Below, piece after piece: positions 1 through 32,310 of a stretch of 38,234 bases of DNA. The notes under the pieces are model-generated. The model was not told the origin of the DNA and did no database searches. It saw nothing but the letters and a program-made list of their open reading frames with translations. The translations under genes were made by a program, and so were the position numbers. This DNA comes from an uncultured bacterium (GTDB taxonomy: Bacteria > Planctomycetota > Phycisphaerae > Sedimentisphaerales > Anaerobacaceae). The DNA is taken from positions 1 through 38,234 of the forward strand of contig CAJVYK010000001.1 in assembly GCA_913009865.1 (NCBI GenBank). The letters run 5' to 3'. Numbering within the stretch: the first letter of the stretch is position 1; every line of letters starts with the position of its first letter.

Positions 1-945
1 CATAGTGGGCAGGGTCAGTGTGGCTGCAGAGCCATTGGCGTTGTAGGTCAAACTAATCGAAAGACTGCTTGCCCCTGCGGTATTATCCGTCAATACAATT
101 TTGCCATTCTCAAGAGTCGCCTTGGCCCTTCCATCAAAGGAGTCATTGATTTCCGAAATAAGATGACTTAGCTTGGTATTACTGGTAATACTGAGATTTA
201 CCTGGGTTATAGTATTTCCATTATGGTCGGTACCGGTTATTTCAATAACTTCGCCGCCTTCGAGGGGGTTGCTTCCGAACTGGTCAAGGTCTTCTATTTT
301 TGAGCTTAGCGTAGCGTTATCACTGCTAACTGTAAAGGCAGTATCAGCTTGCCAGATTTCGGTACTGCTTGCATTAACTGAGATTTTATAATCTGTGCCG
401 GCATCGTTGCCGTTTAGTACCAAATGATAAGCATCGTTGTAGTACAGCAGGCTTGCTGTAACACCGGGATTGTTCGCATCGTTATTGATTAAGCCGACCA
501 TATCTTCCAACGTTGTAGTCGCCGTGGTTGTTATGGATGTTTCCTGCTGGTTATATGAGTAAATAAAGGTGCCGGCGCCGACGTAGTCTTCGGCATATTC
601 CTTGCCGGCGGTATGAACCCAGCGCTCGGCATTGGCCAACTGATTGATTACGACTGTATGATTGCTTTCAAAGGCGTTATAGGACGCTTCGGCGGTCAAT
701 ATGTCCGTATCGCTGGAAGCGGTTGAAAAGGCGCGAAGCTCATCGGCATCGGAGAGAGCTCGAGCAGAGCTTCTTAAAGCATCCAGCTTGGTTTCCAGCG
801 TGCTTAAAGCGTCTTTTTTTTCGTCCCAGACACTTTTACGATCTTCGTACATATTGAGTGTACGACGCTGGGCAGCCATTAACTGGCTGATAAGAGCGCT
901 TGTATCAATGCCTGTGGAAAGGCCTGGAAAACGTAAAGTTGACAT
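1..945 (-). CDS. fliD: Flagellar filament cap protein FliD (HAP2). This is the N-terminal 315 codons; the C-terminus lies beyond the left edge.
   Basis: The frame is open on the minus strand to the window edge, so it has no in-window stop and is missing from the ORF track. My translation from the ATG at 943-945 reads MSTLRFPGLSTGIDTSALISQLMAAQRRTLNMYEDRKSVWDEKKDALSTLETKLDALRSSARALSDADELRAFS, then HTVVINQLANAERWVHTAGKEYAEDYVGAGTF and DANNPGVTASLLYYNDAYHL. This is the typical FliD N-terminal heptad region and central-domain pattern. I checked all 315 codons and found no stop. Confidence 0.85.
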   Translation of the reverse strand, partial: MSTLRFPGLSTGIDTSALISQLMAAQRRTLNMYEDRKSVWDEKKDALSTLETKLDALRSSARALSDADELRAFSTASSDTDILTAEASYNAFESNHTVVINQLANAERWVHTAGKEYAEDYVGAGTFIYSYNQQETSITTTATTTLEDMVGLINNDANNPGVTASLLYYNDAYHLVLNGNDAGTDYKISVNASSTEIWQADTAFTVSSDNATLSSKIEDLDQFGSNPLEGGEVIEITGTDHNGNTITQVNLSITSNTKLSHLISEINDSFDGRAKATLENGKIVLTDNTAGASSLSISLTYNANGSAATLTLPTM

Positions 946-1091
946 CTTTGTCTGCCTTTTTGTCTAAATTTTCACGCTTTTACAAAAAAATTAAATAAAT
1001 ACGGCTAATACATACGCTTTGCGCAACTTTATTATCGTTTAAAGATAGCTTTTGCTTAACTATTTATCTTACTTGCATAGCATATTATTAG

Positions 1092-4000
1092 TTAACAAGC
1101 GGCCTGCTGTACTGTTTCGGCGTATCCGTGCCGAACAAATTCGGATTTTTGTAGTAACTGCTGAACCAGCCGGTTTCCCGGGGCCATTTCAAGACAGTCT
1201 CTTAGCTTTGAACAGGCCTGCTCGAAAGCCGTTTGTGCGTAAACAGGCGCATTTGATTTTATGTAAGCCTGCCCTATTGTAAGGCAAGTTACGGCGGCCA
1301 GGCATTTAGCATGCAATTGCCTTCTTTCGGGGGCTATCCTGTCCCAGGCGACGTCGGGAAACAGCTCGTCCGGCGCAAACGTGTCGGCAAACCGCTCAAC
1401 CACCTCGAAATGAGATTTTGCCTTTCGGGCAGTGAAGTTTCTTGAAAGACTGTCGGTGGTCATTCGGCGCAGATACAACGCCGCCCTCAAGTGATGTATT
1501 TTCAGGCCCTTCTTTACGAATCGCCGCATCATATCGTAGTCTTCAGCCATATCCAACTGCTCATCAAAAAAACCGATTTTATCAAAGACACTTCTTCTAA
1601 TGCAGGTTCTAAACGGCACGACCGGAAAGCCGCAGCGGAACAGGTCCCTGATGAGCAGTTTCCGGTTTGTGTACTCGGGTCGTTCAATTATCCGAATCGA
1701 CTTGCCATCCTCATCAATAAGGTGGTCGTCACAATAAACCAAATCGGTCTCCGGATATTTTTCGAACTCGGTCAGGTGTCTGGCGATAAAATCCGGCGCC
1801 ATAATGTCATCGGAATCGAGTTTGATTAGAAAACTGCCTTTAGATTTTTTTATCCCAACATTATGAGTGGTTGCAAGCCCGGAGTTTTCCTGATAGAAGT
1901 ATTCGATTCTTTCATCTTTGAAGCCGGCGATGATGTCTTTAGTATTGTCTGTCGAGCCGTCATCGATGAGGATAAGCTCAAAATTTCTATAGCTTTGGGT
2001 TAGAACGCTTTCAATCGCCTCTGTAATATACTCAGCGGCGTTGTAGGCGGGCATAATCACCGAAACCAGCGTATTTGTCTGTTCCTTGGCCAGTGTTCTT
2101 CTTATAAGAGCATTTATCTTTGCCTTCTCGCGGGTTAGTCTGCCGATAAAGGCCTTGGTGGTATCGTGGCTCTGTGAGCTTGGCAGTTCTCTGTAGAGGT
2201 ACAGGCACTTATCCACGAACTTCAATTGCGTTACTTCCTCCATTTTGTAACTGATGTCCCTGTCCTCGGCATATAGTATGTCCTCGTCGTAGCCGGAGGT
2301 TTTCAGATAGTCAGCCATCTTGAAAGTCCTGAAAGCGCTTACCAGATGCGCGTCAAGATTGGTCTTGCCTGCCGGTATTTTCGCTCCGAAGCCAATCTGC
2401 CTTGGCGCAAGGTCTTCGTGACAGCACATAAACTGTGAGTATATAAGACCGGCATCGGGGAAATCAACGTGATGTGAGTACATTGTCTCAACAGCATCTT
2501 TTGTAAGACAGTCATCGCTATCCAGGATGCCAAAATACTCTGACTGAACGTTGGCGATACCGCTCTTTAACGCGGCAATATAACCTCTATTCCGCTCATG
2601 CTGAATCAGCCTTATACGCTTATCATCGAGATACCGATTGATTATCGCCACTGAGTTATCAGTCGAGCAATCTTCAATAATGATTAGCTCCCAGTCCTTA
2701 AAAGTTTGGTTCAACACGGATTCTATGGCCTCGGCGATATAGCCGCCATTATTGTAATTGGCCATAATTACGGAGAATTTCGGTATCGAATTTGACTGCT
2801 GTTTACAGTGCTCGATATTACTCGCCTCAGCCGCCGGCTTGTCGCCATTCCTGCGATGAAGCGCCTCGGCCATTGCAAGCTCGGCATATTGATTTTGCGC
2901 TTCAGCTTTTGCGAAAGAAATAGTTCCCGGCCAGTACCTTAATTTGTATAAATATTCTCCCATGTTTCGTATTTCCCCTATTTCGGATAATCGAAGCCAC
3001 AGGTCGTAGTCCTGGGAATACATATATTTTTCATTATACCCTCCGACTTCTATCAGAGAGGTTCTTCGCAGCATTGCCGTCCCGTGAGCAACACAGTTTC
3101 CATCTAACAATCCTGCTTTAATGCCATCAGGTTCTGTTGGCCGTCTGTCATAGGCGCCGCAGATTTCGCCGTTGGAATCTATCCTGGCACACCAGCATCC
3201 CAAAACTGTACAGTTCGGATTTTCATCTAAAAATTTTACCTGTTTTTCAAATCGCTGGGGATGAGAAATATCGTCTGCATCCATTCGGGCAATGTATTCG
3301 CCTCTGCACAACTTCAAGCCAATATTCAAAGATTTCGTCAGGCCGATGTTTTCAGAATTTCTGTAGATAAACGTCCTTGAATCTTTCATCTTAACGAGTA
3401 TCTCAGATGTCCTGTCAGTGCTTGCATCGTCAATTATAATCACCTCGAAATCCTGATATGTCTGGCTGTATATGCTCTTTAACGCCTGTTCGATGAATTT
3501 TTCGGTGTTATAAACAGATATTAATACGCTTATCTTAGGCTTGTCAGTCATATCCTTGTTTTTTTCATTGTCGGGTATATAAGCGTTAAGACCGTCGCCG
3601 TAATAATGTTTAGCTCTGTTATTGTGCCCCTGGAGGTAAACCAGGCCTCTGTCATCGATATATTGATACAGCCGATTATCTAATACGAAGCGATATAAGC
3701 TGCTGTCGGGTATGCCTACAAATACATTGGGCCAAACCACATCTGGCTCTATTTGCTTCAACAGCTCCGCTGTTTCCCTGATATCCGACTCGGTCTCACC
3801 GGGAACCCCAACGACTACGCTCGCTGCTGCTTTTACACCAAATTCATGACACCATTTAAAAGCATTTTTAATCTGTTCGACAGTAATATCTTTCTGTAAT
3901 AAATCCAGTATTCTTTGAGAACCGCTTTCCACTCCGAAATAAAACCCCTTTGCGCCGGCGCGGGCCATCAACTCAACCGTCTCTCTGCTGAGGTTGGAGA

Positions 4001-5816
4001 CCCTTGATTCACAGGCCCAGGATATCTTTATCCCTTTCTCTATAAGCAAATTACAAAATTTGCTCAATCTTTCCTTATTAAGGGTAAAATTATCCTCCCG
4101 GAAATAGATTCCTTTAACTCCGTAATGTTCGATAAGATGTTCAATATCGGAGACAATTCGTTCAGCGCTGAAATATGTATATTTCCTGCCCCAGACAGAG
4201 CAGACAGAGCAGAATGTACATCTAAACGGGCAGCCGCGACTCGTATTCATTGTGAATATAGGGCTGTCCTGAAAAAACTTAACGCTCCAGTCATAGGGTA
4301 AATTAACGAAACAATCCCAGGCGGGCATTGGTAATGCATCCAGATTTTCTATGCGGGGATAATTCACAATTCTTTCGGTAACTTTGCCGTCTGCAATATC
4401 GAGAATTGCACGTTCCCCTTCCCCCTGCACAATGTAATCGACAAAGTCTGGAATGGTATCTGCAGCTACGGTAGTGTGAGGGCCTCCTACGATTATCTTG
4501 CCGACCCATTTGCGTGTTTGTCTCAAATGTTCGAGTTTGTGCAGCATTCGGAGAGTATCGCGGAAGCAAATTGTATTCGCATAAATGCCGACATAATCTA
4601 TTTTGTTTTTCCAAAGGTAGTCTGTATCGAGAAAGTTGGTCGGCTGTAAGTAGTTGTCTATGAAAGATACTTCGTGGCCGGCGTTACGCAGCACGGAAAT
4701 CAGGAACCCGATTCCTATAGGCGGCCTTTTTTCTTTAGTTGAAAATGGCGCCTGGGCCGGGGCGGCGGAGGTCGTAAGCAGAATTCGCTTTCGAGGACTC
4801 TCGCTGTCAGAATGAGATATTCCGGACGGTTCATTTGTTTTTCTTTCCTGATGCGAAAATGTACAACTTATCTTCGGCTGTTCCGGCTGCATCCTGTCTA
4901 ATTCATCGAACATCGCACTTAGTCTTTTCACCCAGGTATGCTCTTTCAATGCCCTGTTATAACCGCAATTCGCTATCTCCATTCGCTTATCATCATTCTT
5001 TAGATAATACGAAATTTTTTCCACCGCTTCGGCAATGTTCTCGAAGCATTCTATTTCCTTACCTATCTGGTAATATTCTTCTAATCCATCGGCATATTCG
5101 GTCAGCAAAAAGCCGCCGCACATCGGCACTTCGAAAACTCTGCCTTTTATCTGTTTGATACCGTCATTCCGGGAGCTGCCGCAAAAGTTAAGATTGATTT
5201 TGCTGGCATTAAATATTTTTATCATATCATCGAATTCGACGAATTTTCCGAACCCTTTTCCAAAAGCAGTAATCGGCACAGCCCTGTTTTCCAGATAAAG
5301 CAGATTTTCCAGCCGTTTCCCATGGCCGCCCCCGATGAAAGTAACATCATAGGCAAATTTGGCGTCGATTTTTTTGTAATAATTCTGATTTGACGCCCAC
5401 TGAGACTTGATAACATTAAGGCCCAATTTTGCATACTTCTCAACGGAATGCTTATCTGTAGTAACCGAGCAAAAAACGTGCCTGGCTACTATTCTCGAAT
5501 AGTCTTCAAACCGCCAGTGGTCATCGGAGAACCAGGCGATTACTTTTGTTCCTAATGTACCAATCGTGTCCAGCGTTTTCATCTCTACCTGGTCCTGGTA
5601 GGTATGGAGCAGAACATAATCGGGCTTTTCTTTTCTTACTGTCTCGATGATTTCTGCATTCATCGATTCCTTGCCGATTTGTTTGATTTTTTCAATGTAA
5701 TTATAGTTGATTACATTTGAAAAAATCTGCTTCAGCGGCTCGTAGAAATTAATATCGCAGTCGTAGTTTATACAGCCTACGGTTAAAAATAGGATTTTTC
5801 GTCCTTCCATAAGCAT
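1092..5816 (-). CDS. 1574-aa multi-enzyme fusion: CgeB-like glycosyltransferase, B12-binding-type radical SAM domain, three GT2 glycosyltransferase modules and a short helical TPR-like tail.
   Basis: N-terminus: SKINLNFCG...GRVFEVPMCGGFLLTEY...ISYYLKNDDKRMEIANCGYNRALKEHTW, matching the CgeB/Glyco_trans_1_2 pattern. Middle: a Rossmann-like stretch IGIGFLISVLRNAGHEV...IIVGGPHTT, followed by the radical-SAM cluster SRGCPFRCTFCSV (CxxxCxxC, DNA about 4205-4235) and GFYFGVESGSQRILD. Three GT2 signatures follow: ISVLISVYNTEKFIEQALKSIYSQTYQDFEVIIIDDASTD; FSVIMANYNNGGYIAEAIESVLNQTFKDWELIIIEDCSTDNS; and VSVIMPAYNAAEYITEAIESVLTQSYRNFELILIDDGSTDNT. Each has a downstream DxD-type motif (MDADD, LDSDD, LDSDD). 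Confidence 0.85.
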   Translation of the reverse strand: MLMEGRKILFLTVGCINYDCDINFYEPLKQIFSNVINYNYIEKIKQIGKESMNAEIIETVRKEKPDYVLLHTYQDQVEMKTLDTIGTLGTKVIAWFSDDHWRFEDYSRIVARHVFCSVTTDKHSVEKYAKLGLNVIKSQWASNQNYYKKIDAKFAYDVTFIGGGHGKRLENLLYLENRAVPITAFGKGFGKFVEFDDMIKIFNASKINLNFCGSSRNDGIKQIKGRVFEVPMCGGFLLTEYADGLEEYYQIGKEIECFENIAEAVEKISYYLKNDDKRMEIANCGYNRALKEHTWVKRLSAMFDELDRMQPEQPKISCTFSHQERKTNEPSGISHSDSESPRKRILLTTSAAPAQAPFSTKEKRPPIGIGFLISVLRNAGHEVSFIDNYLQPTNFLDTDYLWKNKIDYVGIYANTICFRDTLRMLHKLEHLRQTRKWVGKIIVGGPHTTVAADTIPDFVDYIVQGEGERAILDIADGKVTERIVNYPRIENLDALPMPAWDCFVNLPYDWSVKFFQDSPIFTMNTSRGCPFRCTFCSVCSVWGRKYTYFSAERIVSDIEHLIEHYGVKGIYFREDNFTLNKERLSKFCNLLIEKGIKISWACESRVSNLSRETVELMARAGAKGFYFGVESGSQRILDLLQKDITVEQIKNAFKWCHEFGVKAAASVVVGVPGETESDIRETAELLKQIEPDVVWPNVFVGIPDSSLYRFVLDNRLYQYIDDRGLVYLQGHNNRAKHYYGDGLNAYIPDNEKNKDMTDKPKISVLISVYNTEKFIEQALKSIYSQTYQDFEVIIIDDASTDRTSEILVKMKDSRTFIYRNSENIGLTKSLNIGLKLCRGEYIARMDADDISHPQRFEKQVKFLDENPNCTVLGCWCARIDSNGEICGAYDRRPTEPDGIKAGLLDGNCVAHGTAMLRRTSLIEVGGYNEKYMYSQDYDLWLRLSEIGEIRNMGEYLYKLRYWPGTISFAKAEAQNQYAELAMAEALHRRNGDKPAAEASNIEHCKQQSNSIPKFSVIMANYNNGGYIAEAIESVLNQTFKDWELIIIEDCSTDNSVAIINRYLDDKRIRLIQHERNRGYIAALKSGIANVQSEYFGILDSDDCLTKDAVETMYSHHVDFPDAGLIYSQFMCCHEDLAPRQIGFGAKIPAGKTNLDAHLVSAFRTFKMADYLKTSGYDEDILYAEDRDISYKMEEVTQLKFVDKCLYLYRELPSSQSHDTTKAFIGRLTREKAKINALIRRTLAKEQTNTLVSVIMPAYNAAEYITEAIESVLTQSYRNFELILIDDGSTDNTKDIIAGFKDERIEYFYQENSGLATTHNVGIKKSKGSFLIKLDSDDIMAPDFIARHLTEFEKYPETDLVYCDDHLIDEDGKSIRIIERPEYTNRKLLIRDLFRCGFPVVPFRTCIRRSVFDKIGFFDEQLDMAEDYDMMRRFVKKGLKIHHLRAALYLRRMTTDSLSRNFTARKAKSHFEVVERFADTFAPDELFPDVAWDRIAPERRQLHAKCLAAVTCLTIGQAYIKSNAPVYAQTAFEQACSKLRDCLEMAPGNRLVQQLLQKSEFVRHGYAETVQQAAC

Positions 5817-5826
5817 TTTCTTTCCT

Positions 5827-8298
5827 TTAAAGCTTTTTTACCTTTCTCAGGAAACCTGATGGACAGGATGTTATGAGATGTTTCTTCTCTTTTTCTTCAT
5901 CCTGTTCGAAGTCACTTCTCGTGGAGAGGAATTCCTGTATAGCCTCGTAGGGGCCAGGTCCGTATTGTGGGAGTAGTGGGTGCCCGTTTACAGTACCGTC
6001 TTCAACAATCATATAATTTCCTATAGTTACGATGTCAGAATACAACACCATTTCTTTGAGAACATGCCCCTTAGAGTGGTCGCTATCAAGTAGTACCATA
6101 ACCCCGCTGTTGTTGACCATCATCTTTATTTTTTCAACAACTTTAATATCCGTGCTGTCTCCTACGATACAAGTAACCCTCTCTTTGAATACTCTGTGGT
6201 CCGGCATTTCCTTGCTCGTAAGGTCAACTGTGATAACCTTACCTCTGCCTATCAATTCAAAGATTGAAGCAAAGAAAAAAGACGCACCTCCTTTGTTGGT
6301 GCCGCATTCTACTAAATAGTCAGGCTGTCTCTCCCATAGTATTTCAGCAATGGTGAACATATCAACAGGATACTGAAGTATAGGGGCTCCTAACCAGTAT
6401 GTATTTTGAAACGGTTGAACCATTCCCAACTGTTTTGGGTCATAGTAAATTTTATGGAACTCATCAATAATGTTCTTGATGGCCATCTGTTCTTTTTTCT
6501 TTATGTACTGAGTTGTTTTGGCGTAAAAGTGGTTTATGCCTGTTTTGCTTAATTTTTTAGATAAGTTACCTGGAAACTGCCGATTGTACGCAAGCTTTTG
6601 GTCCAAATAGTAAAAGTTTTTGCTTCTTAAAATTCTACACCACATATCAATATCTGCTGCGCTTCCCACGTCAGCGTCGAAAATACCGACCTTTTCAAAA
6701 TCTTCTTTTCGAAACAATATAGATGTCGGCCATCCTACCGGTCTTTTTTGTAAAAGATAATTTTTGATAAATTCTTCACCATTCTCCTTTGTGTTTTTGT
6801 TGAATAACCGATATGGATTATTATTGTTTTTTATGTCGTTATTCTCATCGATGATGTGATAATTACAACAAACGACTCCCACATCAGGACATTCATTTAG
6901 GATTTTTACCTGTTCAGCAATGCAATTATTTTCGAGTATGTCGTCATCTCCCATTATTTTGATATATTCACCCGAAGATAATGACACAGCCTTATTCCAG
7001 TTCTTTATGAATCCTATGTTACGTTCATTTCTGATGAACGTAACATTCTTTATGTTAGAGTAAGCCTCCGAGAGACTTACGGTGTCGTCTGTAGAACAGT
7101 CATCCAAAACTAAAATTTCTACGTTAGGATAAGTTTGATTGACCGCCGAATCTATTGCCATTTTGAGGTAATCGGCTCTATTAAAGGCCGTGATTAGTAT
7201 CGATATCTTTGGGATTTGTCCTTTAGGAACAACAGTTTTACAACTACGAGCAACACAGATTATGAAATCTTTTTTATCGAGATGATCCTCAACGTTATGC
7301 GTCTGGTAGTTCTGGTATTTAAGAAGTTCAGGTATCAGATTATTTGCGGATAACCATTGCTTAATTTTTGCCTCATCAATATAAAACGTCAGATGAAAGC
7401 CCATGTTAATTGCCGCAGGACTCCTCTCCTGTATATAAGGCGTTGAAAGAATAAGCGTTCCGCCAGGTTTAAGTGCACGGCTGAAAATTCCAAACAGTTT
7501 AAGGATATCGTCTTCCTTCAAATGTTCAATTGTCTCAAAGGAAACGATATAATCAAATAAAGATTGGTACTTTAAATCTAATAGATTTGCATGGACAAAT
7601 TCGACGTTCTTCCTGTTTTTGTAACGAACTTTTACTTGTTCTATAACTTTTTCGTCAATATCCACGCCAATTACACGGTCGGATTTTTCTGATAACATAA
7701 TGCTGCCATAGCCTGTCCCACACGCAAAATCTCCGACCGTTTTTCCAGGCGAAATGATAGATTTAGCATACTCATATCTCTTGTAATGACTTTTTTGGGT
7801 CGTACCTAATTCATCAAATTTAACGTCTTCTTTGTAAAATATATCGACACGTTCACCATTACCGTCTAAGTTAGCTTCGGGAGAGCAAAAAGGGGTTTTG
7901 GTCAATACAAAATTTTTATTTGCAGAAACGCTCATCTTCTCCCCTGAAGCTGCAAGGTCGTTAATGGATTCTTCCAATATCTGCTTATCAAATTCGATAA
8001 AACCACTTACAAATAGCAAAAACTTGCCTCTTGCTACCATTGCTGCCTTATTGAATGACTGCTCTTGACTTAAGAATCCACCATGGTCCAAAACCTTTAT
8101 CGCCGGTAAAAACGCCCTTAATTGTCTTTCATCAATCTCCAATCCCCGGCTGTTAACAACCACCAGTTCATAGTCACCCGGCAGCTCCCTCTCGCTCAGT
8201 TTTTGCAGGTACGCACTGAGCTTCGAAGAATCGTTACCGGCGGACAGGATAATCGAGCAGCGCACAGCCGCTTCAACTTGTGCTTCCGTATTTAGCAT
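5827..8298 (-). CDS. 823-aa multi-enzyme fusion: degenerate GT2-like module, class I SAM methyltransferase, GT2 glycosyltransferase and CmcI-family (cephalosporin hydroxylase-like / sugar O-methyltransferase-like) domain.
   Basis: SAM motif I VGDFACGTGYGS, with RVIGVDID and LKPGGTLILSTP. GT2 signature ISILITAFNRADYLKMAIDSAVNQTYPNVEILVLDDCSTDDT, with GDDDIL. C-terminus NTYWLGAPILQYPVDMFTIAEILWERQPDYLVECGTNKGGASFFFASIFELIGRGKVITVDL...IVGDSTD fits the CmcI-type fold pattern. The N-terminal 130 aa look GT2-like, but SGF replaces the DxD. A 10-nt gap separates this ORF from each neighbouring ORF. Confidence 0.8.
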   Translation of the reverse strand: MLNTEAQVEAAVRCSIILSAGNDSSKLSAYLQKLSERELPGDYELVVVNSRGLEIDERQLRAFLPAIKVLDHGGFLSQEQSFNKAAMVARGKFLLFVSGFIEFDKQILEESINDLAASGEKMSVSANKNFVLTKTPFCSPEANLDGNGERVDIFYKEDVKFDELGTTQKSHYKRYEYAKSIISPGKTVGDFACGTGYGSIMLSEKSDRVIGVDIDEKVIEQVKVRYKNRKNVEFVHANLLDLKYQSLFDYIVSFETIEHLKEDDILKLFGIFSRALKPGGTLILSTPYIQERSPAAINMGFHLTFYIDEAKIKQWLSANNLIPELLKYQNYQTHNVEDHLDKKDFIICVARSCKTVVPKGQIPKISILITAFNRADYLKMAIDSAVNQTYPNVEILVLDDCSTDDTVSLSEAYSNIKNVTFIRNERNIGFIKNWNKAVSLSSGEYIKIMGDDDILENNCIAEQVKILNECPDVGVVCCNYHIIDENNDIKNNNNPYRLFNKNTKENGEEFIKNYLLQKRPVGWPTSILFRKEDFEKVGIFDADVGSAADIDMWCRILRSKNFYYLDQKLAYNRQFPGNLSKKLSKTGINHFYAKTTQYIKKKEQMAIKNIIDEFHKIYYDPKQLGMVQPFQNTYWLGAPILQYPVDMFTIAEILWERQPDYLVECGTNKGGASFFFASIFELIGRGKVITVDLTSKEMPDHRVFKERVTCIVGDSTDIKVVEKIKMMVNNSGVMVLLDSDHSKGHVLKEMVLYSDIVTIGNYMIVEDGTVNGHPLLPQYGPGPYEAIQEFLSTRSDFEQDEEKEKKHLITSCPSGFLRKVKKL

Positions 8299-8308
8299 TG
8301 ATACTTCC

Positions 8309-8620
8309 TCAGATATTACTTCGATAAACCTCTATGGTCTTTTTGCCCTTGCGGAGCCGGCTTAACTCTTCGGTGGTTCCGGCTTTTTGAACGGTAACGG
8401 CCAGACATAAATCTTCGTATAATTTTTGCAATTGCTCTTGTCGATTTTTAAATTCCGGCAGTTCGAGAACCCCTGTCTGTGCGATTTTTCCCACAACAGA
8501 ACCGGCTTGCTTGCTTAAAACCTCAACCTTGTTGATGTTACCCTGCCGGGCCAGCTCTATTTGCTTTTCCAGCAGACTCTGAAGCTTATCCAACAGATGT
8601 ATCTGTCTATCCATACTCAT
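8309..8620 (-). CDS. Small 103-aa heptad-rich (coiled-coil) protein. It may be a FlgN/FliT-like chaperone, but the function is unknown.
   Basis: It has a 4-nt ATGA overlap with the upstream TPR ORF (tcat at 8617-8620 on the plus strand). The sequence is helical and heptad-rich (LLDKLQSLLEKQIELARQGNINKVEVL...QEQLQKLYEDL). I recognise no family-specific motif. Confidence 0.5.
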   Translation of the reverse strand: MSMDRQIHLLDKLQSLLEKQIELARQGNINKVEVLSKQAGSVVGKIAQTGVLELPEFKNRQEQLQKLYEDLCLAVTVQKAGTTEELSRLRKGKKTIEVYRSNI

Positions 8621-9264
8621 CCAACCTGAACTCCTGTCCTGCTGCCTTGTCTTGTTTGAGCCAAATTGTGCTCAACTTCCTCCAGAAGATTAGCTGCATC
8701 CTGATGGCCGGCATCCAAAGTTAAAATGTCCAGGAGGATTTTTTTGGACTGCTCAAGCCGGCTGTCTTTCATATATAACGCTGCCAGGGAGAACATAACG
8801 GATATGTCAGCCGGGTGCATATCCAAATACAGCTGCAGATAGTAAATGACCTTTGCGAATGAGCCCATCTGGCAAGAGGCCTGAAACAGTCCCAAAAGAG
8901 CTGTCAGGTTGTCGGTATCTAACTCCAAACACTTTAGATACATCTCAAAGGCCTGCTTGTAATCACATTTTTGTTGTGCGACCATAGCCAGTCCGCAATA
9001 GGCCTTGGCGCAATTGGTGTCCAGCCGAGCCGCGACCCTGAAGGCTACTTCAGCATCATCAAGAAGATTTTCCTGCAGTCCAACTACTCCAAGACCAACG
9101 TATGGACCCGGCTCATCAGGTCCCAGTGATGCCGCTTTTTCGTAGCAGCGCTGTGCCTGTACATAGTTGCCGACGGAGGTGTAACAATCGCCGAGTTCCT
9201 GTAAAACCTCGTAGTGCTGGGTCAAATCGGGCTGTTCAGCAGTATTTTCCTGTGTTATGTCCAT
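8617..9264 (-). CDS. Stand-alone TPR-repeat protein (215 aa).
   Basis: It contains repeated 34-aa TPR-like units, for example LGDCYTSVGNYVQAQRCYEKAASLGPD, AKAYCGLAMVAQQKCDYKQAFEMYLKCLELD and FSLAALYMKDSRLEQSKKILLDIL. It overlaps the upstream ORF by 10 nt. Confidence 0.7.
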   Translation of the reverse strand: MDITQENTAEQPDLTQHYEVLQELGDCYTSVGNYVQAQRCYEKAASLGPDEPGPYVGLGVVGLQENLLDDAEVAFRVAARLDTNCAKAYCGLAMVAQQKCDYKQAFEMYLKCLELDTDNLTALLGLFQASCQMGSFAKVIYYLQLYLDMHPADISVMFSLAALYMKDSRLEQSKKILLDILTLDAGHQDAANLLEEVEHNLAQTRQGSRTGVQVG

Positions 9265-10823
9265 AACAATTCACTTCCTTCAAGTATTTGTTCCGCTCTT
9301 TTGAGTAATTCAATCGCTGAGTTAAAATTTACTTTTTCCCGGCTAACCTTTGCTTCTAACAAGAGTGTATTCACTGTAGGCCGATGCCGGTTGACTTCGC
9401 AACTGAGCTTAGCTGCTTTGGTGTGGCTGCCAGCTTTGAAAAAAGCCTTCGCGGCCAGTGTTTTCATCCATAGCTGGTTCTGGTGATGTTCGGCAATATA
9501 TTCGAATAGCTGGGCTGCCTGGGCCCAGTTACCGTCTTTTTCCGCTGACCGGGCTTGTTGAAGCAACTGGTCAAACTGAAAGGGGATTTCTTCAGGACGC
9601 AATTGTCTTATTACAATACCGGCGGCTTTCAGAGATTCGCAAATTGACAAATGTGGAAAGCTTTCCCGAGCGTACTTTAAGTCATCTTTTTTTACTACCA
9701 CCGCCCAGAGCATATCCGTTGAACCTTCCAGTTCAAATCCTTCGCGAGCATCCGAATTGTTAATCAGAGCGTAAAGCGGGTCCTCTATCCACATTTCCTC
9801 TATGTCAAAGCCGCTTGGTACGATGACAATATACTCGCCATCGCATACGGCCAGGGCTGTATCGATCCGCTTGGTACTGGAGGCGGGAAAGTTGACCGGT
9901 ACGTTGATTATGTTTGGCATATCTGTGTTGAGCTTGTTGAAATCGGTATGCGGCAGCGGAAGATAAATTTTGTACGGATAGAAAGTGTGCCTCCAGATAG
10001 AGCCGATGGTTTTTCCCGCCTGTTTGTTCAGCCGATCCGGAGAAAAAATGATGGACATATCCTTAATCTTTGTCCAGGGCTTGGCCGGCCTTGTGGTTCG
10101 TATCGTCAGAAGGTTCTTTAGATACTCGTTTTCATCTTTGCGCTGCTGAACTGATATTCTGTCGGATTCGCCGACAGGGCTGTAAAATTCGCCCGTGATT
10201 TCGCAGACGTGATGAAAATCCGAAAAGAAAGCCAGCCGACGGGTTATGTCCCAGTCGATTAGAACGTTGAGCTGTTCATTATAAAGACCTGTCTTTTCAA
10301 GCAGGTCTCTGCGGTGCATCAAGCTTACGTGCAGGGCGTGATTGAAGTAGAGCATAAGAAAACGGTCGAAATCACGGCTGATTTCAACGACCTTGCTTAA
10401 GACCTGCCGGCTGCCGTCCGGAGAAACTTTACAATATGCTTTGTACAGGTCGCTGTACGCAACCTGGCAGTCGCTTCTGTTTTCCAGAGCATCAACCAAC
10501 GTTTCGATATGATGGGGATAATATAAATCGTCGTCGTCAAGATAGGCGATGTATTTTCCCTCGGCTCGGGCTAACGCTTCGTTGAGCGAGAAGGCCTTGC
10601 CGTGATTTTCCTTCCTGTTGATAAATATTATCCGTTGGTCGTTAAATGAATTAACTATATCGCTTACGTCTTCACCGCCGTCGTTGATTACAATAACCTG
10701 GAGATTTCTGTAACTCTGGTGCAAAGCGCTTGCCAGAGCCACAGACAGGTACCGGGGCCGATTAAAAGTCGGGACGAGCACGCTGACCATCGGCCCAGTC
10801 TTGCTCTCTATGTCTTTGGCCAT
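9255..10823 (-). CDS. GT2 glycosyltransferase with a C-terminal TPR-like region (522 aa).
   Basis: The N-terminus VSVLVPTFNRPRYLSVALASALHQSYRNLQVIVINDGGED, followed by YLDDDD, is a GT2 signature. The C-terminus has helical TPR-like repeats (NWAQAAQLFEYIAEHHQNQLWMKTLAAKAFFKAGSHTKAAKL...AIELLKRAEQIL). Confidence 0.8.
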   Translation of the reverse strand: MAKDIESKTGPMVSVLVPTFNRPRYLSVALASALHQSYRNLQVIVINDGGEDVSDIVNSFNDQRIIFINRKENHGKAFSLNEALARAEGKYIAYLDDDDLYYPHHIETLVDALENRSDCQVAYSDLYKAYCKVSPDGSRQVLSKVVEISRDFDRFLMLYFNHALHVSLMHRRDLLEKTGLYNEQLNVLIDWDITRRLAFFSDFHHVCEITGEFYSPVGESDRISVQQRKDENEYLKNLLTIRTTRPAKPWTKIKDMSIIFSPDRLNKQAGKTIGSIWRHTFYPYKIYLPLPHTDFNKLNTDMPNIINVPVNFPASSTKRIDTALAVCDGEYIVIVPSGFDIEEMWIEDPLYALINNSDAREGFELEGSTDMLWAVVVKKDDLKYARESFPHLSICESLKAAGIVIRQLRPEEIPFQFDQLLQQARSAEKDGNWAQAAQLFEYIAEHHQNQLWMKTLAAKAFFKAGSHTKAAKLSCEVNRHRPTVNTLLLEAKVSREKVNFNSAIELLKRAEQILEGSELLWT

Positions 10824-10831
10824 ATCAAAAA

Positions 10832-12289
10832 CTATCCAAGTCGATTTTCAACCGGCAATTGGAAATCACCAACAGGCAATTTATCTGAATCCATCTCGGC
10901 TTCAAATTGGGTAAAAATTTCGTTGATTTTGCGCAACTGTTCTTTCAGAGGGTAATTTTCTTCTACGAATCTGCGGTACTTCCGCGGCTCGTATGTACCG
11001 GAGAGAATCTGCTCACAGAATTCTTCGGAAATGTTAAATAGAAACTGCGGCGGGAAAATCTGGTCTGCTCCCGGGAAATTGTGGATAACCGGTTTCAATC
11101 CGCAGGCCATACCTTCCAGCAATCCCATACCCTGAGATTCTGCGATGCTGGCTGAGACGATGTAGTGTTTATTCTCAAGCCAGGAATTTATATCTTCCTG
11201 CCAGCCGTCAAAAAACACCACATCTGTGAGTTCAAGTGCTTTACAGATATGCCTGATATACTGTTCGAGCATTGGGTCCTGGAAAGTTCCCGCAAAGAAC
11301 AGCTTATATTCAGAGTCAATGTAGTGCAGCTTCTGCATACACTGCAGAAGGGATACAGGGTTCTTTCTCATATTCAGATAGCCCACACAGGCCAGATTCT
11401 TGCCGGGCTGTCTCTCAATGAACTTGAACTTATCGAAGTTGACGCCGTTGGGAATCGTGACAACCCGCGTGCGACTTTCGATATCGGGCACTTGTTTAAT
11501 CAGTGCGTCTTTGACAAACGAGTTGCCAACGGTGATGAGTGTATCTATGTTCTCCCACCGGACCCGGCTCGGCCAGTTCTGGTAGGCCTCGAAACGGTGA
11601 AGCCGGACAATATTTTTGCAGACTTTCGGCAGTTTTGAGGCCTCTGCAACTACATCGGTACACCACTCAAACCAGGCTATGTCACTGGCCTTCATTAGTT
11701 CATACATCTGGTCGATACTTTGGTTCCCGGAAAGCTGTACCTGATATCGAGATTCGGTGAATTCGTAAATATCCGTCAGAAACTTTACATCGCCGCTTAA
11801 TCCGCAGAAGAATGCGATTTTGCCTCTTTTAGAGCGAATCACTTCAATCATCGGCTTGAGAATTTCCTGGTCGGGCCAGTTTGTCAGTGAACGGAGCAGC
11901 ATTTCGATGGCGTCGGCCTTATTGTCCTGATTTAGAAATACATTAGCGGTTCTGTTAAGTACATCAGCATTCAATATGCCCATTCGCTCCATATCGTCGA
12001 AAAGCTGTACCGCTTCGTTTGCTCTCCCGAGAGCAAGATATGCCTCTACCAGATTCCAGATTATCTCAGGGCTGTCGCTCTGCAGGGCCCTGGCTTTGAC
12101 AAAATGATTGATGGCTTCGTCCGAGCGGCCCAGGCAGTGGAGAATTGCTCCCGCATCGTTCAGGGCCTGCGCATCATCCGACGCTGTGCGAAGATGTTCT
12201 TGAATACAGTCGAGAGCTTCGCTGTGCCTGCCGGCCTCGGCTAATTCCAAACCTCTCTGGTAATGATTCGATTTTGTCCCCATTGTCAT
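10832..12289 (-). CDS. N-terminal TPR plus C-terminal GT-B (GT4-like) glycosyltransferase. The architecture resembles FlmG-type flagellin glycosyltransferases.
   Basis: N-terminal TPRs: YQRGLELAEAGRHSEALDCIQEHL, LNDAGAILHCLGRSDEAINHFVKARAL and WNLVEAYLALGRANEAVQLF. The C-terminus carries the GT-B/GT4 hallmark ESQGMGLLEGMACGLKPVIHNFPGA. A GGAG RBS lies about 10 nt upstream of the ATG at 12289. Confidence 0.8.
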   Translation of the reverse strand: MTMGTKSNHYQRGLELAEAGRHSEALDCIQEHLRTASDDAQALNDAGAILHCLGRSDEAINHFVKARALQSDSPEIIWNLVEAYLALGRANEAVQLFDDMERMGILNADVLNRTANVFLNQDNKADAIEMLLRSLTNWPDQEILKPMIEVIRSKRGKIAFFCGLSGDVKFLTDIYEFTESRYQVQLSGNQSIDQMYELMKASDIAWFEWCTDVVAEASKLPKVCKNIVRLHRFEAYQNWPSRVRWENIDTLITVGNSFVKDALIKQVPDIESRTRVVTIPNGVNFDKFKFIERQPGKNLACVGYLNMRKNPVSLLQCMQKLHYIDSEYKLFFAGTFQDPMLEQYIRHICKALELTDVVFFDGWQEDINSWLENKHYIVSASIAESQGMGLLEGMACGLKPVIHNFPGADQIFPPQFLFNISEEFCEQILSGTYEPRKYRRFVEENYPLKEQLRKINEIFTQFEAEMDSDKLPVGDFQLPVENRLG

Positions 12290-12375
12290 CTGCCTTACTC
12301 CGTATTTACGTTACAGTCCTTAAAACAAGTTTTCTTTACAGACCTGCGGCTAAATGGCTATATAGCAACCATTAC

Positions 12376-12390
12376 GCAAATTCTGTGCCG
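12376..12390 (-). promoter_or_regulatory. Sigma-54 (-24/-12) type promoter for the glycosylation operon.
   Basis: The plus strand reads gcaaattctgtgccg, so the minus strand reads CGGCAC-AGAAT-TTGC. GG-N10-GC spacing is correct against the consensus TGGCAC-N5-TTGC. It lies about 87 nt upstream of the ATG at 12289, in the 222-bp gap after flgL. Confidence 0.55.
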
Positions 12391-12511: not shown

Positions 12512-13699
12512 CTATCTGAGGAAATCCAGCAGCGACATAGACATAAGTTTTCCAGCTACGGACAACGACATCTGGTAAAGAACCTGACGGCGAGACATAT
12601 CTATTGCTATTTGAGCAATGTCAGCTTCCTGCAAACGAGTTACTTCATCCTCAGTGTCGTACTTCAGATTTTTTAGACTATCTTTGAGATTGTCCAGGAA
12701 ACCAATTTTTGACCCCGCAGAAACAGATTTTTGTAACAAAAGATTGCTTATCTCTTTCAGTGAATCCAACGAATTATCCTGTAGCTGCTGCAATTGAGCA
12801 TCGGAAAGCTCTCTATCGTTCTCAAGTATGTCCCGGATGGTAATAAGCGTATTGAATGCGTCATAAGTTCCGGGTATGCGTACCAACTCAACTCCCGTAC
12901 TGTTTATTCCGGTAGTGTCAACGTAGAGAACCTGTCCGGTTCGCGAATCCGTTACAAGCTGGTTGGTCTCTCCGCCGGCGGGGACGGTTATGTAGCTGGC
13001 TCCATCGTCAATAGAGAGTTTGTAATTGCTGCCATCGTGGATTACCGTCAGCCAGACATCGCCGGTAACACTCGGTGTCCCCGTGCCGGCTTTGGCGCCG
13101 GTATCACCCGGAAAGATGGGGCTGCTGCGATTGCTCGAACGAAAAATATTATCGCCTACATAAAGAGCACTGGACTGCACTCCGGGGGCCACCTCAATAT
13201 TGCGACCCTCGAGACTGCCCTGGTAGGTTACGCTGGTGATTTTCCCGTTAGTGCGCTCCACGGTATAGGGCGCCGAGGCCGTATCGCTTCCCCCAAAAAG
13301 GTATTGGTTATTATGTTTGGTATTAGCCAGTGAAACTATCTGCTCTAATATATCGTTGATACCCTCTGCTGTCCTTTCTCGTGCCTGGTCGTCATAGATG
13401 CCGCCGGAGATTTGAACCAGACGTAATTTCGTCTCCGCCAGAGATGACATCATATTCTCGATAATGGTGGAGGAAAGCTCCAGCGTACTAACAAGCTCCG
13501 AGAGGCCGTCTATATAATTTTCCATAGACCTTTGCTGAGAGTCGAGCCCTAAAACCTGGTACGCCGCAGATGGGTCATCAGAGGCCCGATTTATCCGCGA
13601 GCCGGTAGATGCCTGTTCCTGCAGGCGAGCCATCGCCTCGGCTTGAAAATTCAAAGAAAAGCTGATATTATTGTAAATATTACTCAGTGTTCCGCTCAT
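12512..13699 (-). CDS. flgL: Flagellar hook-associated protein 3 (hook-filament junction) FlgL.
   Basis: It has a flagellin-type N-terminus, ASTGSRINRASDDPSAAYQVLGL. It lies immediately downstream of flgK. The C-terminal helical region is EADIAQIAIDMSRRQVLYQMSLSVAGKLMSMSLLDFL. Confidence 0.85.
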   Translation of the reverse strand: MSGTLSNIYNNISFSLNFQAEAMARLQEQASTGSRINRASDDPSAAYQVLGLDSQQRSMENYIDGLSELVSTLELSSTIIENMMSSLAETKLRLVQISGGIYDDQARERTAEGINDILEQIVSLANTKHNNQYLFGGSDTASAPYTVERTNGKITSVTYQGSLEGRNIEVAPGVQSSALYVGDNIFRSSNRSSPIFPGDTGAKAGTGTPSVTGDVWLTVIHDGSNYKLSIDDGASYITVPAGGETNQLVTDSRTGQVLYVDTTGINSTGVELVRIPGTYDAFNTLITIRDILENDRELSDAQLQQLQDNSLDSLKEISNLLLQKSVSAGSKIGFLDNLKDSLKNLKYDTEDEVTRLQEADIAQIAIDMSRRQVLYQMSLSVAGKLMSMSLLDFLR

Positions 13700-15720: not shown

Positions 15721-16242
15721 TCAAAAGCGCAAATTTACAAAAGCTGTGTCAGTCTGCCGTTTGGCGGCCCCGTTGGAATTGTAGTAAACTATCCCGGTGC
15801 CGCCGAGGTCGAAAATACTTTTCAAAAGCAGGCCGTTGAATCTGGCACAATCTGACAAAAGCAGTGCCGTGCTTAAATGCTCTTTCTTAAGCTCCTCAGT
15901 CAATACTCTTAATTTTGCCTTCCTCTCGGCTACTTGAGCTTTTTTTTCTTTTGGCAACGCAGCTTCGAGTCTGGACAGGGTCATTTGCCCGGGGTTACAG
16001 CCGAAAGCAATCGCCAATTCTTTTCGTAACGACTGTCGTTGTGATTCGCAGCTTCTGTAACGCTCCGAGGCAACCCGAATAGTCTCGAGCAGTTTACCCA
16101 GAGAGGTATCGTTACGCTTAACGACCAGACTGCGCAGTTCGTTCAATCGCAACGAACACTCTTGTATATGCTGAATGTCTTTGTCGAGACAAGTGAGCAG
16201 TTCGTCGATTTTATCTTCTATTTCAATAACCGCCTCTTTCAT
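15721..16242 (-). CDS. flgN: FlgN-like export chaperone. The assignment rests mainly on position.
   Basis: This 173-aa helical protein sits directly upstream of flgK, the classical flgN position. It has an ATGA-type overlap with the preceding rod-binding gene. Sequence-level support is weak. Confidence 0.55.
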   Translation of the reverse strand: MKEAVIEIEDKIDELLTCLDKDIQHIQECSLRLNELRSLVVKRNDTSLGKLLETIRVASERYRSCESQRQSLRKELAIAFGCNPGQMTLSRLEAALPKEKKAQVAERKAKLRVLTEELKKEHLSTALLLSDCARFNGLLLKSIFDLGGTGIVYYNSNGAAKRQTDTAFVNLRF

Positions 16243-16583
16243 ATATTCTTATCCAGTGACTGTGTCGTTGTTTTTGCCTGGCTCGAATCGGTTAAAAATT
16301 TGTATATGTCCTTCCACATCCCGAAGCCGCCGTTGTTTGCGATGTCGCGGGCCAGGTACAGCCAGAATATCCCCTGAACCTGTCCGGATGCGCCATCTTT
16401 GTCAAAGCCCCAGTCCCCGATAGTATTTTTCATCTCGTTCAGCAGTTTATTGATAAAAACCGACTCAAAATCTTTGGCTATTTGTTTCTTCTTCTCTTCC
16501 GAAATACCATCGAGCTTGCCTAAATCCCGCAGGGGACTCGGCGGTGAAACGGCTCCGGTTAATATCAATTTGGCGCTATCCAT
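16239..16583 (-). CDS. flgJ: Rod-binding protein, equivalent to the FlgJ N-terminal domain only, with no muramidase domain.
   Basis: The motif KDFESVFINKLLNEMKNT, followed by ...GGFGMWKDIYKFL, matches the Rod_binding pattern (FEa.fl.qmlk.M ... GG.GlA). The protein is only 114 aa. Confidence 0.75.
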   Translation of the reverse strand: MDSAKLILTGAVSPPSPLRDLGKLDGISEEKKKQIAKDFESVFINKLLNEMKNTIGDWGFDKDGASGQVQGIFWLYLARDIANNGGFGMWKDIYKFLTDSSQAKTTTQSLDKNI

Positions 16584-24406: not shown

Positions 24407-24513
24407 AAGTTTTCCACCTTCTTAAATTAAAAAGACCAAAAACCAAACAAGGTTTCTTTTCGAAACGATGCTGCTCGATGCCATACTGGCACAAGTCAGC
24501 AATCAATGAGTGA

Positions 24514-24528
24514 GCAATTGGTGTGCCA
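24514..24528 (-). promoter_or_regulatory. Sigma-54 promoter for the flgD-to-flgL operon.
   Basis: The plus strand reads gcaattggtgtgcca, so the minus strand reads TGGCAC-ACCAA-TTGC. This is an exact match to TGGCAC-N5-TTGC. It lies about 108 nt upstream of the flgD ATG. Confidence 0.7.
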
Positions 24529-26896: not shown

Positions 26897-26911
26897 TGGC
26901 ACAATTGTTGC
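26897..26911 (+). promoter_or_regulatory. Sigma-54 promoter driving the TPR-TPR-activator operon.
   Basis: The sequence is tggcac-aattg-ttgc(t), an exact match to the TGGCAC-N5-TTGCW consensus. It overlaps the ORF-track start at 26905, so the real start of the downstream CDS must lie further downstream. Confidence 0.7.
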
Positions 26912-27036
26912 TATATGTTGGGAATGCGGGCTACCATTTTGCAATTTGCCGCAGAATAGGGGATGCGTTAGCTCTCCGTCAGGAGTCCATAGGACTGCTA
27001 CAGGTAAACGCTAAGCTGAGGGCGAAGTCGGAATTT

Positions 27037-32203: not shown

Positions 32204-32310
32204 AAAAATCAAAGATACCTATACCTAAGGCACAGGTGGCATAAATTAAAAAACAAAATTGCGGAACCCCGACAAAGTCGGGATGGCTTTTTGATTGTTT
32301 TTTGTTTTAC
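32204..32310. repeat. Copy A of a conserved 62-nt element plus GC hairpin and T-rich tail (terminator-like).
   Basis: Positions 32204-32265 match 36798-36859 at 60 of 62 positions, including an exact 49-mer: aaaaatcaaagatacctatacctaaggcacaggtggcataaattaaaaa. A hairpin cccgac-aaa-gtcggg (32268-32282) follows, then atggctttttgattgttttttgtttt. Confidence 0.7.

Follow-up and report, generated by a model that had tools for sequence, protein, structure and literature searches.

Flagellin glycans influence filament assembly, immune and phage recognition and the surface properties of the cell, and the genes that build them classically form an island among the late flagellar genes. Such islands can encode glycosyltransferases (GTs) joined to tetratricopeptide repeats (TPRs), as in GmaR of Listeria (GT2 with TPR) and FlmG of Caulobacter (TPR with GT-B). 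To our knowledge, flagellin glycan biosynthesis as described so far draws on conventional sugar chemistry only. Here we analyse a 38,234-nt stretch of DNA from an uncultured member of the Planctomycetota (Sedimentisphaerales, Anaerobacaceae; contig CAJVYK010000001.1 of assembly GCA_913009865.1, positions 1 to 38,234 of the forward strand), called the window below, in which one minus-strand gene encodes a 1574-aa protein that joins a B12-type radical S-adenosylmethionine (SAM) module to four GT domains. We consider it reasonably probable that the product is a soluble cytoplasmic enzyme with a part in building the glycan of the flagellar filament, its radical SAM module tailoring the sugar handled by the first GT2 domain (GT2a).

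The known members of class B, the B12-type radical SAM enzymes, act on peptides, antibiotics, lipids or cofactors, and two of them, GenK and GenD1, methylate unactivated sugar carbons. We know of none that takes part in flagellin or O-polysaccharide glycan synthesis, or that is fused to a GT2. In hopanoid cyclitol ether synthesis, HpnI (a GT2) and then HpnJ (a B12-type radical SAM enzyme) act successively on the same sugar; unlike the parts of the 1574-aa protein, these are separate proteins, working on a lipid acceptor in another context. Soluble polypeptides with several GT2 sites have parallels in K4 chondroitin polymerase KfoC, heparosan synthase and the multidomain enzymes of O-antigen ATP-binding cassette (ABC) pathways, none of which carries a radical SAM domain, and the window, unlike ABC pathways, has no transporter. 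Among class-B enzymes, MgmA/QCMT, TsrM, OxsB, TokK and CysS share with our module an N-terminal B12-type Rossmann domain followed by a CxxxCxxC barrel. AprD4 likewise combines a Rossmann-like N-terminal domain with a radical SAM barrel, is of similar size and acts on a sugar; it differs in standing alone, in serving antibiotic (apramycin) biosynthesis with no GT fusion and in using no cobalamin (PMC12931638).

The domain families and flagellin glycosylation islands are already known; the radical SAM–GT module has no curated model, no informative name and no paper that we could find. Searches of the literature, which did not cover most subscription journals, returned no radical SAM–GT module, no radical SAM step in flagellin glycosylation, no island bearing a radical SAM gene or a four-GT protein, and nothing relevant on C-methylated sugars in O-antigens. 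One paper, on C. jejuni HS:19, mentions a radical SAM protein of the capsule locus, which is unrelated.

A radical SAM enzyme joined to glycosyltransferases

The gene is a single uninterrupted frame of 1574 codons starting with ATG, as read from the list of open reading frames (ORFs) and the translation, and Pfam places in it the five catalytic-type modules that an earlier reading of the sequence alone (the original prediction) had proposed (Table 1). PF13524 (Glyco_trans_1_2) matches residues 181-303 (E 1.4e-28; 100.1 bits, cut-off 25), PF02310 (B12-binding) residues 365-472 (47.6 bits, cut-off 32.1) and PF04055 (Radical_SAM) residues 523-686 (E 1.3e-27; 97.5 bits, cut-off 29.5), while PF00535 (Glycos_transf_2) matches three stretches (E 1.4e-101; 337.9 bits summed); the C-terminal tail has no Pfam match. 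The cysteine motif singled out in that prediction, SRGCPFRCTFCSV, is present, and C529/C533/C536 is the sole CxxxCxxC of the protein. The proposed class-B-like architecture is borne out by PF02310 above its cut-off and by a Rossmann fold in the structural model. The modules were correctly recognized, but the limits drawn for the GT2 units lay about 40 residues too far downstream of our own, at about 758-1000, 1005-1240 and 1245-1480, and the Rossmann–radical SAM block runs from about residue 345 to 757. We detected no hydrophobic segment resembling a transmembrane helix (highest 19-residue Kyte-Doolittle mean, 1.2), and the protein is therefore predicted to be soluble.

Each GT2 unit has the DxD-type motif expected of it (DAD846, DSD1099 and DSD1334), and a (Q/E)DxD motif further on. 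Pairwise identities among the three units are 27-31%, and they are therefore not recent duplicates. In the PDB, GT2a is best matched by the C-terminal GT2 of the K4 chondroitin polymerase from E. coli (5e-29), a soluble multi-GT2 enzyme that extends chains, and GmaR is only a weak match (5.5e-05). At the other end of the protein, the N-terminal domain has no solved relative among PDB sequences and its AlphaFold2 (AF2) model, spanning residues 1-320, is poor (predicted local distance difference test (pLDDT) score 60 from 11 sequences), so the GT-B assignment comes mainly from Pfam; a Foldseek search with this low-confidence model returned the GT-B enzymes LpxB, GlgM, MshA and PglA at template-modelling (TM) scores of about 0.4-0.5.

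A search with the full-length protein gave 211 clusters of relatives at E<=1e-10, the best 120 all above 950 bits, and among their names we found nothing more specific than 'glycosyltransferase', 'EpsE' and 'O-antigen biosynthesis protein'. We cut the query into pieces and compared each by BLAST with the best 120 of the 211. A contiguous block of B12 domain, radical SAM core, radical SAM C-terminal extension and GT2a is present in all of these but one (P0021), at identities of 64-87% for the B12 domain, 61-84% for the radical SAM core and 40-74% for GT2a, and a second GT2 nearly always follows it. The flanks vary: the CgeB-like domain occurs in about 12, and other members carry class-I methyltransferases, TPR arrays, GT4 domains or carbamoyl-, fucosyl- or heptosyl-transferase domains. 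GT2b is confined to about ten close relatives (63-81% identity); GT2c is found in about 20 (59-79%), always accompanied by the C-terminal tail, which is 40-68% identical wherever a GT2c ortholog is present. The smallest relatives, of 877-1053 aa, consist of B12, radical SAM, GT2 and GT2 domains and nothing else. In P0021 the CgeB-like domain, GT2b and GT2c are retained at 74-77% identity, with the radical SAM domain absent and the B12 domain partial, a layout from which it follows that modules are shuffled between genes.

In a scan of one genome per species, 131 stretches encoded a relative, mostly in metagenome-assembled genomes (MAGs) of anaerobic lineages, and 80 loci were kept. The carriers, whose taxonomic labels can be wrong since most are MAGs, include Planctomycetota (Sedimentisphaerales, Phycisphaerae, 'Pirellulales' and Kuenenia), Nitrospiraceae, Thermodesulfovibrionales, Syntrophales, Desulfobaccales, Pelobacter, Fibrobacteres, Omnitrophota, Anaerolineae, Acidobacteriota and others, with Desulfoferrobacter suflitae DRH4 as an isolate among them. 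The fused block is found in 46 of the 80 loci, in proteins of up to 4064 aa with varying flanking domains, and a stand-alone radical SAM protein (417-497 aa, 49-58% identical) in 33. For about 24 of these 33, a GT2a-type ORF, closer to GT2a (38-46% identity) than to GT2b or GT2c, lies immediately downstream or one gene away. Because the radical SAM module and GT2a are thus either fused or adjacent, the Rosetta-stone argument has them acting on one substrate. The comparison shows that the conserved unit is the radical SAM module plus the first GT2, and that the CgeB-like domain, GT2b and GT2c are swappable accessories. An arrangement that the original prediction called unusual is indeed so among characterized proteins, but the radical SAM–GT2 block is common in anaerobe metagenomes; of the domain order that was to be sought elsewhere, the B12–radical SAM–GT2a part recurs, but the domains around it do not stay constant.

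A profile of the radical SAM module, run against 1.84 billion representative sequences, matched about 28 clusters with scores above 729 bits when proteins were grouped at 50% identity; from there the scores fall off without a break and merge into class B at large, 13,470 proteins reaching E<=1e-30. Four distant proteins of 2000-2300 aa (P0169, P0174, P0185 and P0235) each contain four to five separate matches to the profile in one polypeptide.

Chemistry of the radical SAM module

The three cluster cysteines are invariant across 25 aligned relatives, as are numerous polar residues in the barrel motifs YFREDNFT, CExR, ESG, DDRG and H. In the C-terminal extension (41-84% identity among relatives), D377, D378, R379, G380 and H387, in module numbering, do not vary. 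The Rossmann domain is the best-conserved part of the whole protein, and has an invariant long loop, EKRPPxGxG, after strand 1, besides invariant GGP and GEGE motifs; we take this conservation to lean towards a real cofactor site. From 25 sequences, AF2 produced a confident model of residues 345-760 (pLDDT 87.7; predicted TM score 0.86), which comprises a Rossmann domain of five strands and five helices and a barrel. Searched alone against PDB sequences, the B12 domain gave chance matches only (PilT and COX8).

No curated family claims the module. None of the NCBIfam radical SAM models comes near its cut-off: those for PhpK, ApyD, ladderane radical SAM, HpnJ, BchE, QCMT and AprD4 score 93-137 bits against 360-750. 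PhpK reaches 136 bits (cut-off 600), and HpnJ, at 130 bits (cut-off 577.6), is among the best-scoring; HpnJ, BchE, ladderane radical SAM and ApyD together span 127-136 bits, their cut-offs of 360-750 unmet. QCMT gives 105 bits (cut-off 360), the model for C-methyltransferases of ribosomally synthesized and post-translationally modified peptides 100 bits (cut-off 281.85), and the AprD4 model NF033070 93.4 bits (cut-off 500), below the P- and C-methylase models. Since all curated models fall so far short, the reaction type cannot be read from homology. Judged by its sequence, the module has a class-B-like architecture and stands outside every named family.

Our tentative choice for the likeliest chemistry is cobalamin-dependent methylation of an unactivated sugar carbon, which keeps the C-methylation of the original prediction as plausible. 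Against it stand the shortfall of the curated models just described and the matches to solved structures. In a sequence search of the PDB, the top match was AprD4 (6fd2; E 5.2e-22), in an alignment confined to the barrel with the Rossmann domain outside, and the same protein led the Foldseek search with the module model (E 1e-20; TMq 0.77 and TMt 0.71 over 443 columns, 19-20% identity). AprD4 is a cobalamin-free sugar 1,2-diol dehydratase that falls within class-B similarity networks, and cobalamin binding is marked by no simple sequence motif, as a 2026 review sets out (PMC12931638). Ranked second by sequence was MgmA/QCMT (9ccb; E 1.8e-17), a cobalamin-dependent glutamine C-methylase (PMC11796369), with an alignment that extends into the Rossmann domain, and TsrM, OxsB and TokK matched more weakly (E 1e-3 to 1e-4). 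By fold, AprD4 was followed by TsrM, MgmA, OxsB (TMq 0.75) and CysS, the class-B matches having E values of 1e-16 to 1e-18, and then by MiaB/RimO.

The module could instead be an AprD4-like, cobalamin-independent dehydratase or deoxygenase, which would take a hydrogen from a carbinol carbon of the sugar, expel the hydroxyl next to it and so place a deoxy-keto sugar in the glycan or its donor, leaving the Rossmann domain a purely structural part. We hold this to be unlikely, if worth keeping in view: AprD4 is the best match by sequence and by fold, is of similar size (454 aa, against 416 for the module and 417-497 for its stand-alone relatives) and shows that an enzyme clustering with class B can do without cobalamin. 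The identity is only 19-20%, however, the sequence alignment covers the barrel alone, the AprD4 family model scores under those of the P- and C-methylases, and 64-87% identity in the Rossmann domain would be unexpected of a vestigial cofactor domain. We give similarly low credence to another radical rearrangement of the sugar, such as ring contraction to a carbocycle, epimerization or C–C bond formation, and leave what remains to reactions of any other kind. The HpnJ model scores level with any other, OxsB is close in fold, ring contraction has been proposed for HpnJ and is seen in OxsB, and the HpnI/HpnJ pairing offers a precedent for a GT2 followed by a B12-type radical SAM enzyme; yet HpnJ falls far under its cut-off and no feature of the module singles out such chemistry.

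Methylation of a sugar carbon, our preferred reading, and both alternatives to it share the view that the substrate is a sugar. We regard a sugar, not the protein, as the probable substrate because the unit also occurs in lipid-linked polysaccharide pathways and because the closest relative of solved structure has a sugar as its substrate. The original prediction had also allowed for action on the protein acceptor, which is unlikely because the same module serves polysaccharide loci with Wzm and Wzt. Possible edits at an unactivated carbon are C-methylation, deoxygenation and ring rearrangement. More tentatively, the radical SAM–GT2a pair may be an undescribed tailoring module that edits a sugar on the growing protein-linked or polysaccharide chain and not a nucleotide sugar.

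Flagellar setting of the gene and its relatives

The flagellar context is the main functional clue to this gene, and the original prediction had missed it. On the minus strand, in order, lie flgD, flgE, a 430-aa ORF, flgF, flgG, flgA, flgH, flgI, a 114-aa ORF, flgN, flgK and flgL. Six tightly packed minus-strand genes, separated by 8-10 nt or overlapping, begin 222 nt past flgL; the 1574-aa gene closes this operon, and fliD lies 146 nt beyond it. The glycosylation island so bounded by flgL and fliD, 1092-12289, contributes three more GT domains and two methyltransferase domains in its other genes, and with a soluble 1574-aa protein at its end it fits the 'assembly line' that the original prediction pictured. 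The plus strand of the window holds sigma-54 activators, a fliM/N-like gene, flhA and a fliA-like sigma factor. In its GT genes set amid late flagellar genes, and in its GT2-TPR and TPR-GT4 architectures, the window resembles the GmaR and FlmG islands. A similarity specific to GmaR or OGT was sought in these two proteins and rejected: the PDB gave generic GT2 and TPR matches only, with GmaR absent from those of the GT2-TPR protein, so the comparison is architectural only.

Flagellar linkage recurs among the relatives. Locus L081 is syntenic with the window (flgK, flgL, TPR-GT4, GT2, TPR, a 105-aa gene, the methyltransferase protein, the radical SAM–GT gene, fliD and export genes). In Desulfuromonas sp. 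KJ2020 (L082), the radical SAM–GT gene follows a nucleotide-sugar block and further radical SAM genes and precedes flgM, flgN, flgK, flgL, csrA, fliW, TPR-GT41 and GT2 genes, flagellin, flaG, fliD and fliS. A relative (P0060; L084/L085) lies directly upstream of flagellin, and in a Pelobacter MAG (L086) one is found 5 kb from flagellin, flaF and flbT. The minimal protein of Syntrophorhabdus (L083), by contrast, adjoins Wzy_C, Wzm/Wzt, methyltransferase, GT and Bac_transf genes, in what its gene content marks as an ABC-transporter polysaccharide locus. In D. suflitae DRH4 (L068), the split form likewise lies next to Wzm/Wzt. We took a census of loci no shorter than 12 kb, with probes whose sensitivity was limited and whose reach was 10 kb; L055, at a contig end, was dropped, and 32 stand-alone loci were used. 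At least two kinds of flagellar gene were found in 16 of 39 loci with the fused form and in 0 of 25 with the split form, against Wzm plus Wzt in 1 of 39 and 10 of 25. Flagellar loci are thus enriched for the fused form, and Wzm/Wzt polysaccharide loci for the split form.

In the Planctomycetota-type loci, the TPR-GT4, GT2-TPR and TPR proteins are mostly 52-78% identical to their counterparts in the window, against 52-83% for FlgK, FlgL and FliD; in the Kuenenia locus L011 both the island and the flagellar sets are lower. Taken singly, FliD is 63-83% identical in the syntenic Planctomycetota-type loci (45% in L011), the TPR protein 57-78% and the GT2-TPR protein 52-76%, with the 103-aa protein more variable (29-72%). 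The 823-aa protein is the least conserved of the island (25-37%, except 61% over a partial match in L081 and near-identity in contig L001), and the accessory domains of the giant protein also vary among syntenic loci. The front of the island is thus conserved, and the back, its elaborating part, is variable. The flagellar proteins suggest that the window stems from a member of the Planctomycetota. We infer that flagellin is the acceptor from where the operon lies, from its TPR-GT partners and from the recurrence of flagellar linkage.

Some observations pull the other way. The 38-kb window contains no flagellin gene, and its sole Flagellin_N protein is FlgL; 22 of the 39 fused loci had neither flagellar nor Wzm/Wzt genes by our probes, in a census that undercounts flagellar contexts (L025, which is the Pelobacter locus L086, was scored 'neither', a false negative); and no flagellar genes were detected near L028, L030 and L031, from Fibrobacteres and Chitinispirillaceae MAGs. 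The flgL–fliD site might then merely tolerate an insertion whose product makes a surface polysaccharide or surface-layer (S-layer) glycan, as relatives do sit in Wzm/Wzt loci and the AT content of the island is slightly above that of the flagellar genes. We think this improbable: the linkage repeats with differing gene orders in Planctomycetota-type loci, Desulfuromonas, Pelobacter and L084/L085, the TPR-GT and TPR genes of the Planctomycetota-type loci are conserved about as well as FlgK, FlgL and FliD, the window lacks genes for a transporter, a flippase or lipid-carrier priming, and the TPR-GT architectures suggest a protein acceptor. An error of assembly or annotation that joined single-domain genes into one long frame can be dismissed almost entirely, since an independently assembled contig, L001, aligns to window positions 1407-6552 at 99.1% nucleotide identity (43 mismatches in 5147 nt) and keeps the frame open over 1470 shared codons with zero stops, zero indels and 21 amino-acid changes, and since the CgeB–B12, radical SAM–GT2a, GT2a–GT2b and GT2c–tail junctions recur in many unrelated assemblies.

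On the reading that we prefer, synthesis of a flagellar filament glycan, the TPR-bearing GTs of the operon would probably recognize flagellin and start the glycan, and the 823-aa and 1574-aa multidomain proteins would extend and decorate it. The radical SAM module would use a 5'-deoxyadenosyl radical to alter the sugar that GT2a handles, immediately before or after its transfer, and the tether could hand the modified intermediate between the two without release. Further sugars would be added by the CgeB-like domain, GT2b and GT2c, whose differences between strains and species would diversify the glycan.

Other features of the locus and wider meaning

Table 1. Positions in the window of the 1574-aa gene, its parts and the genes around it (aa, residues of the encoded protein)
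Feature	Position	Strand	Basis or remark
flgK	13727-15691	-	NCBIfam 283.9 bits, cut-off 170.75
flgL	12512-13699	-	NCBIfam 188.8 bits, cut-off 127.2
TPR + GT4 (GT-B) protein, 485 aa, TPR N-terminal; first operon gene	10832-12289	-	Pfam
GT2 + C-terminal TPR protein, 522 aa	9255-10823	-	Pfam
TPR protein, 215 aa	8617-9264	-	Pfam TPR
103-aa protein, faint FlgN/DUF6435 similarity only	8309-8620	-	Pfam
Class-I methyltransferase + GT2 + CmcI/rhamnosyl-O-methyltransferase-like protein, 823 aa	5827-8298	-	Pfam/NCBIfam; 10-nt gap to the 1574-aa gene
Whole 1574-aa gene, predicted soluble multidomain protein: GT-B, B12-type Rossmann, radical SAM, three GT2, helical tail	1092-5816	-	ORF, Pfam, contig L001
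CgeB-like GT-B domain, aa 1-320, accessory, variable among relatives	4857-5816	-	PF13524
Linker rich in Ser/Pro/Glu, aa 321-344	4785-4856	-	Translation; poor conservation; pLDDT <50 at aa 312-340
B12-binding-type Rossmann domain, aa 345-480	4377-4784	-	PF02310; AF2 fold
Radical SAM core, aa 481-700; C529/C533/C536 at 4209-4232	3717-4376	-	PF04055
Radical SAM C-terminal extension (DDRG...H motif) and short variable linker to GT2a, aa 701-757	3546-3716	-	Conservation
GT2a, aa 758-1000	2817-3545	-	PF00535
GT2b, aa ~1001-1240, accessory	2097-2816	-	PF00535 stretch; DSD1099, EDRD1185
GT2c, aa ~1241-1480, accessory	1377-2096	-	PF00535/PF10111/PF13641, aa 1251-1455; DSD1334, EDYD1426
Helical C-terminal tail, aa 1481-1574 and stop	1092-1376	-	Conservation beside GT2c
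fliD, N-terminal 315 codons, cut by the window end	1-945	-	PF02465 FliD_N 3.8e-21

Nineteen of the 21 amino-acid differences from contig L001 cluster in a 133-residue tract, residues 897-1029 (window about 2730-3128), which runs from the C-terminal half of GT2a into the beginning of GT2b and has the look of either a patch of local recombination or a fast-evolving region that binds the acceptor. The gene had also been described as a compositional mosaic. The five hand counts of GC (guanine plus cytosine) behind that claim were right (0.35, 0.367, 0.40, 0.50 and 0.55), but the spread is close to binomial noise: 60-nt lines within the gene have a GC standard deviation of 0.075, against 0.064 from sampling, and we rejected GC mosaicism as a mark of recent fusion because it was not significant against that noise. 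By domain, GC ranges over 0.41-0.53 and GC at third codon positions (GC3) over 0.44-0.55. The compositional outlier of the window is the 823-aa gene at 5827-8298 (GC 0.39, GC3 0.40, against 0.47 window-wide). Comparison of the protein sequences indicates that mosaicism is real at the protein level, as module shuffling between relatives and as the local variable tract.

A scan of the island for sigma-70 promoters and terminators found no enrichment over shuffled sequence. A perfect sigma-54 -24/-12 match, TGGCAC-N5-TTGCT, lies at 24513-24528 on the minus strand, 107 nt upstream of flgD. A second perfect match (26897-26912, plus strand) overlaps the listed TTG start of ORF 26905-29544, whose true start, because of this overlap, is probably further downstream. 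In the gap between flgL and the TPR-GT4 gene, 85 nt upstream of the glycosylation operon, there is a sigma-54-like element, CGGCACAGAATTTGCG, with two mismatches (12375-12390, minus strand); matches with up to two mismatches are in total not above chance. The gap upstream of fliD contains a sigma-28-like TAAG-N15-AACGATAA (1032-1058, minus strand), with three mismatches to TAAA-N15-GCCGATAA. Pfam has no match for three minus-strand ORFs of the window, at 20972-22264 (430 aa, between flgE and flgF), 16239-16583 and 32209-32757. The 103-aa and 215-aa TPR proteins are retained in Planctomycetota-type flagellar loci and may be flagellin-handling adaptors.

Further radical SAM genes lie beside nucleotide-sugar genes in three of the related loci (L082:4766-7406, L086:83-9859 and L088:7241-8818): each has a separate B12-type radical SAM protein of 525-550 aa, and L082 and L086 also have SPASM-type ones. 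L088 is a sugar-gene locus with a TylC3-type C-methyltransferase, in which we saw no flagellar gene within 10 kb. On the whole, these islands abound in radical chemistry. The contig of L084/L085 is labelled 'Thermoplasmata archaeon' and carries a complete set of bacterial flagellar genes (flgM, flgN, flgK, flgL, fliW, csrA and flagellin); the label of P0060 is probably a binning error, and we rejected this protein as evidence of an archaeal carrier because its contig is a bacterial flagellar locus. The anammox bacteria of the Candidatus Kuenenia MAGs (L011 and L013) have the module twice, with one copy in a flagellar locus and the other in a 3095-aa protein encoded elsewhere. The S-layer O-glycan of Kuenenia is reported to carry up to five methyl groups on six sugars, at positions assigned by mass only, in a paper that names no genes (PMC5088730). 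A link between the module and this methylation is speculative, mass spectrometry being blind to the difference between C- and O-methyl groups.

If the proposed role is right, protein glycosylation in bacteria would gain its first step catalysed by a radical SAM enzyme, and many lineages of anaerobes would be predicted to display a new sugar on their flagella and surface polysaccharides. Through the covalent coupling of a radical SAM enzyme to a GT, radical chemistry would reach everyday cell-surface glycoconjugates. The pairing spans Planctomycetota, Desulfobacterota-type and Nitrospirota-type lineages and others, with 61-87% identity in the radical SAM part and 40-74% in GT2a. The module of about 650 aa makes a compact target for enzymology, with a built-in clue to its substrate, and D. 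suflitae DRH4 is a cultured carrier; another carrier, Desulfuromonas sp. KJ2020, may be a strain to judge by its name. Finally, the shuffling of domains around this unit illustrates how swaps of catalytic modules within giant genes may generate glycan diversity.

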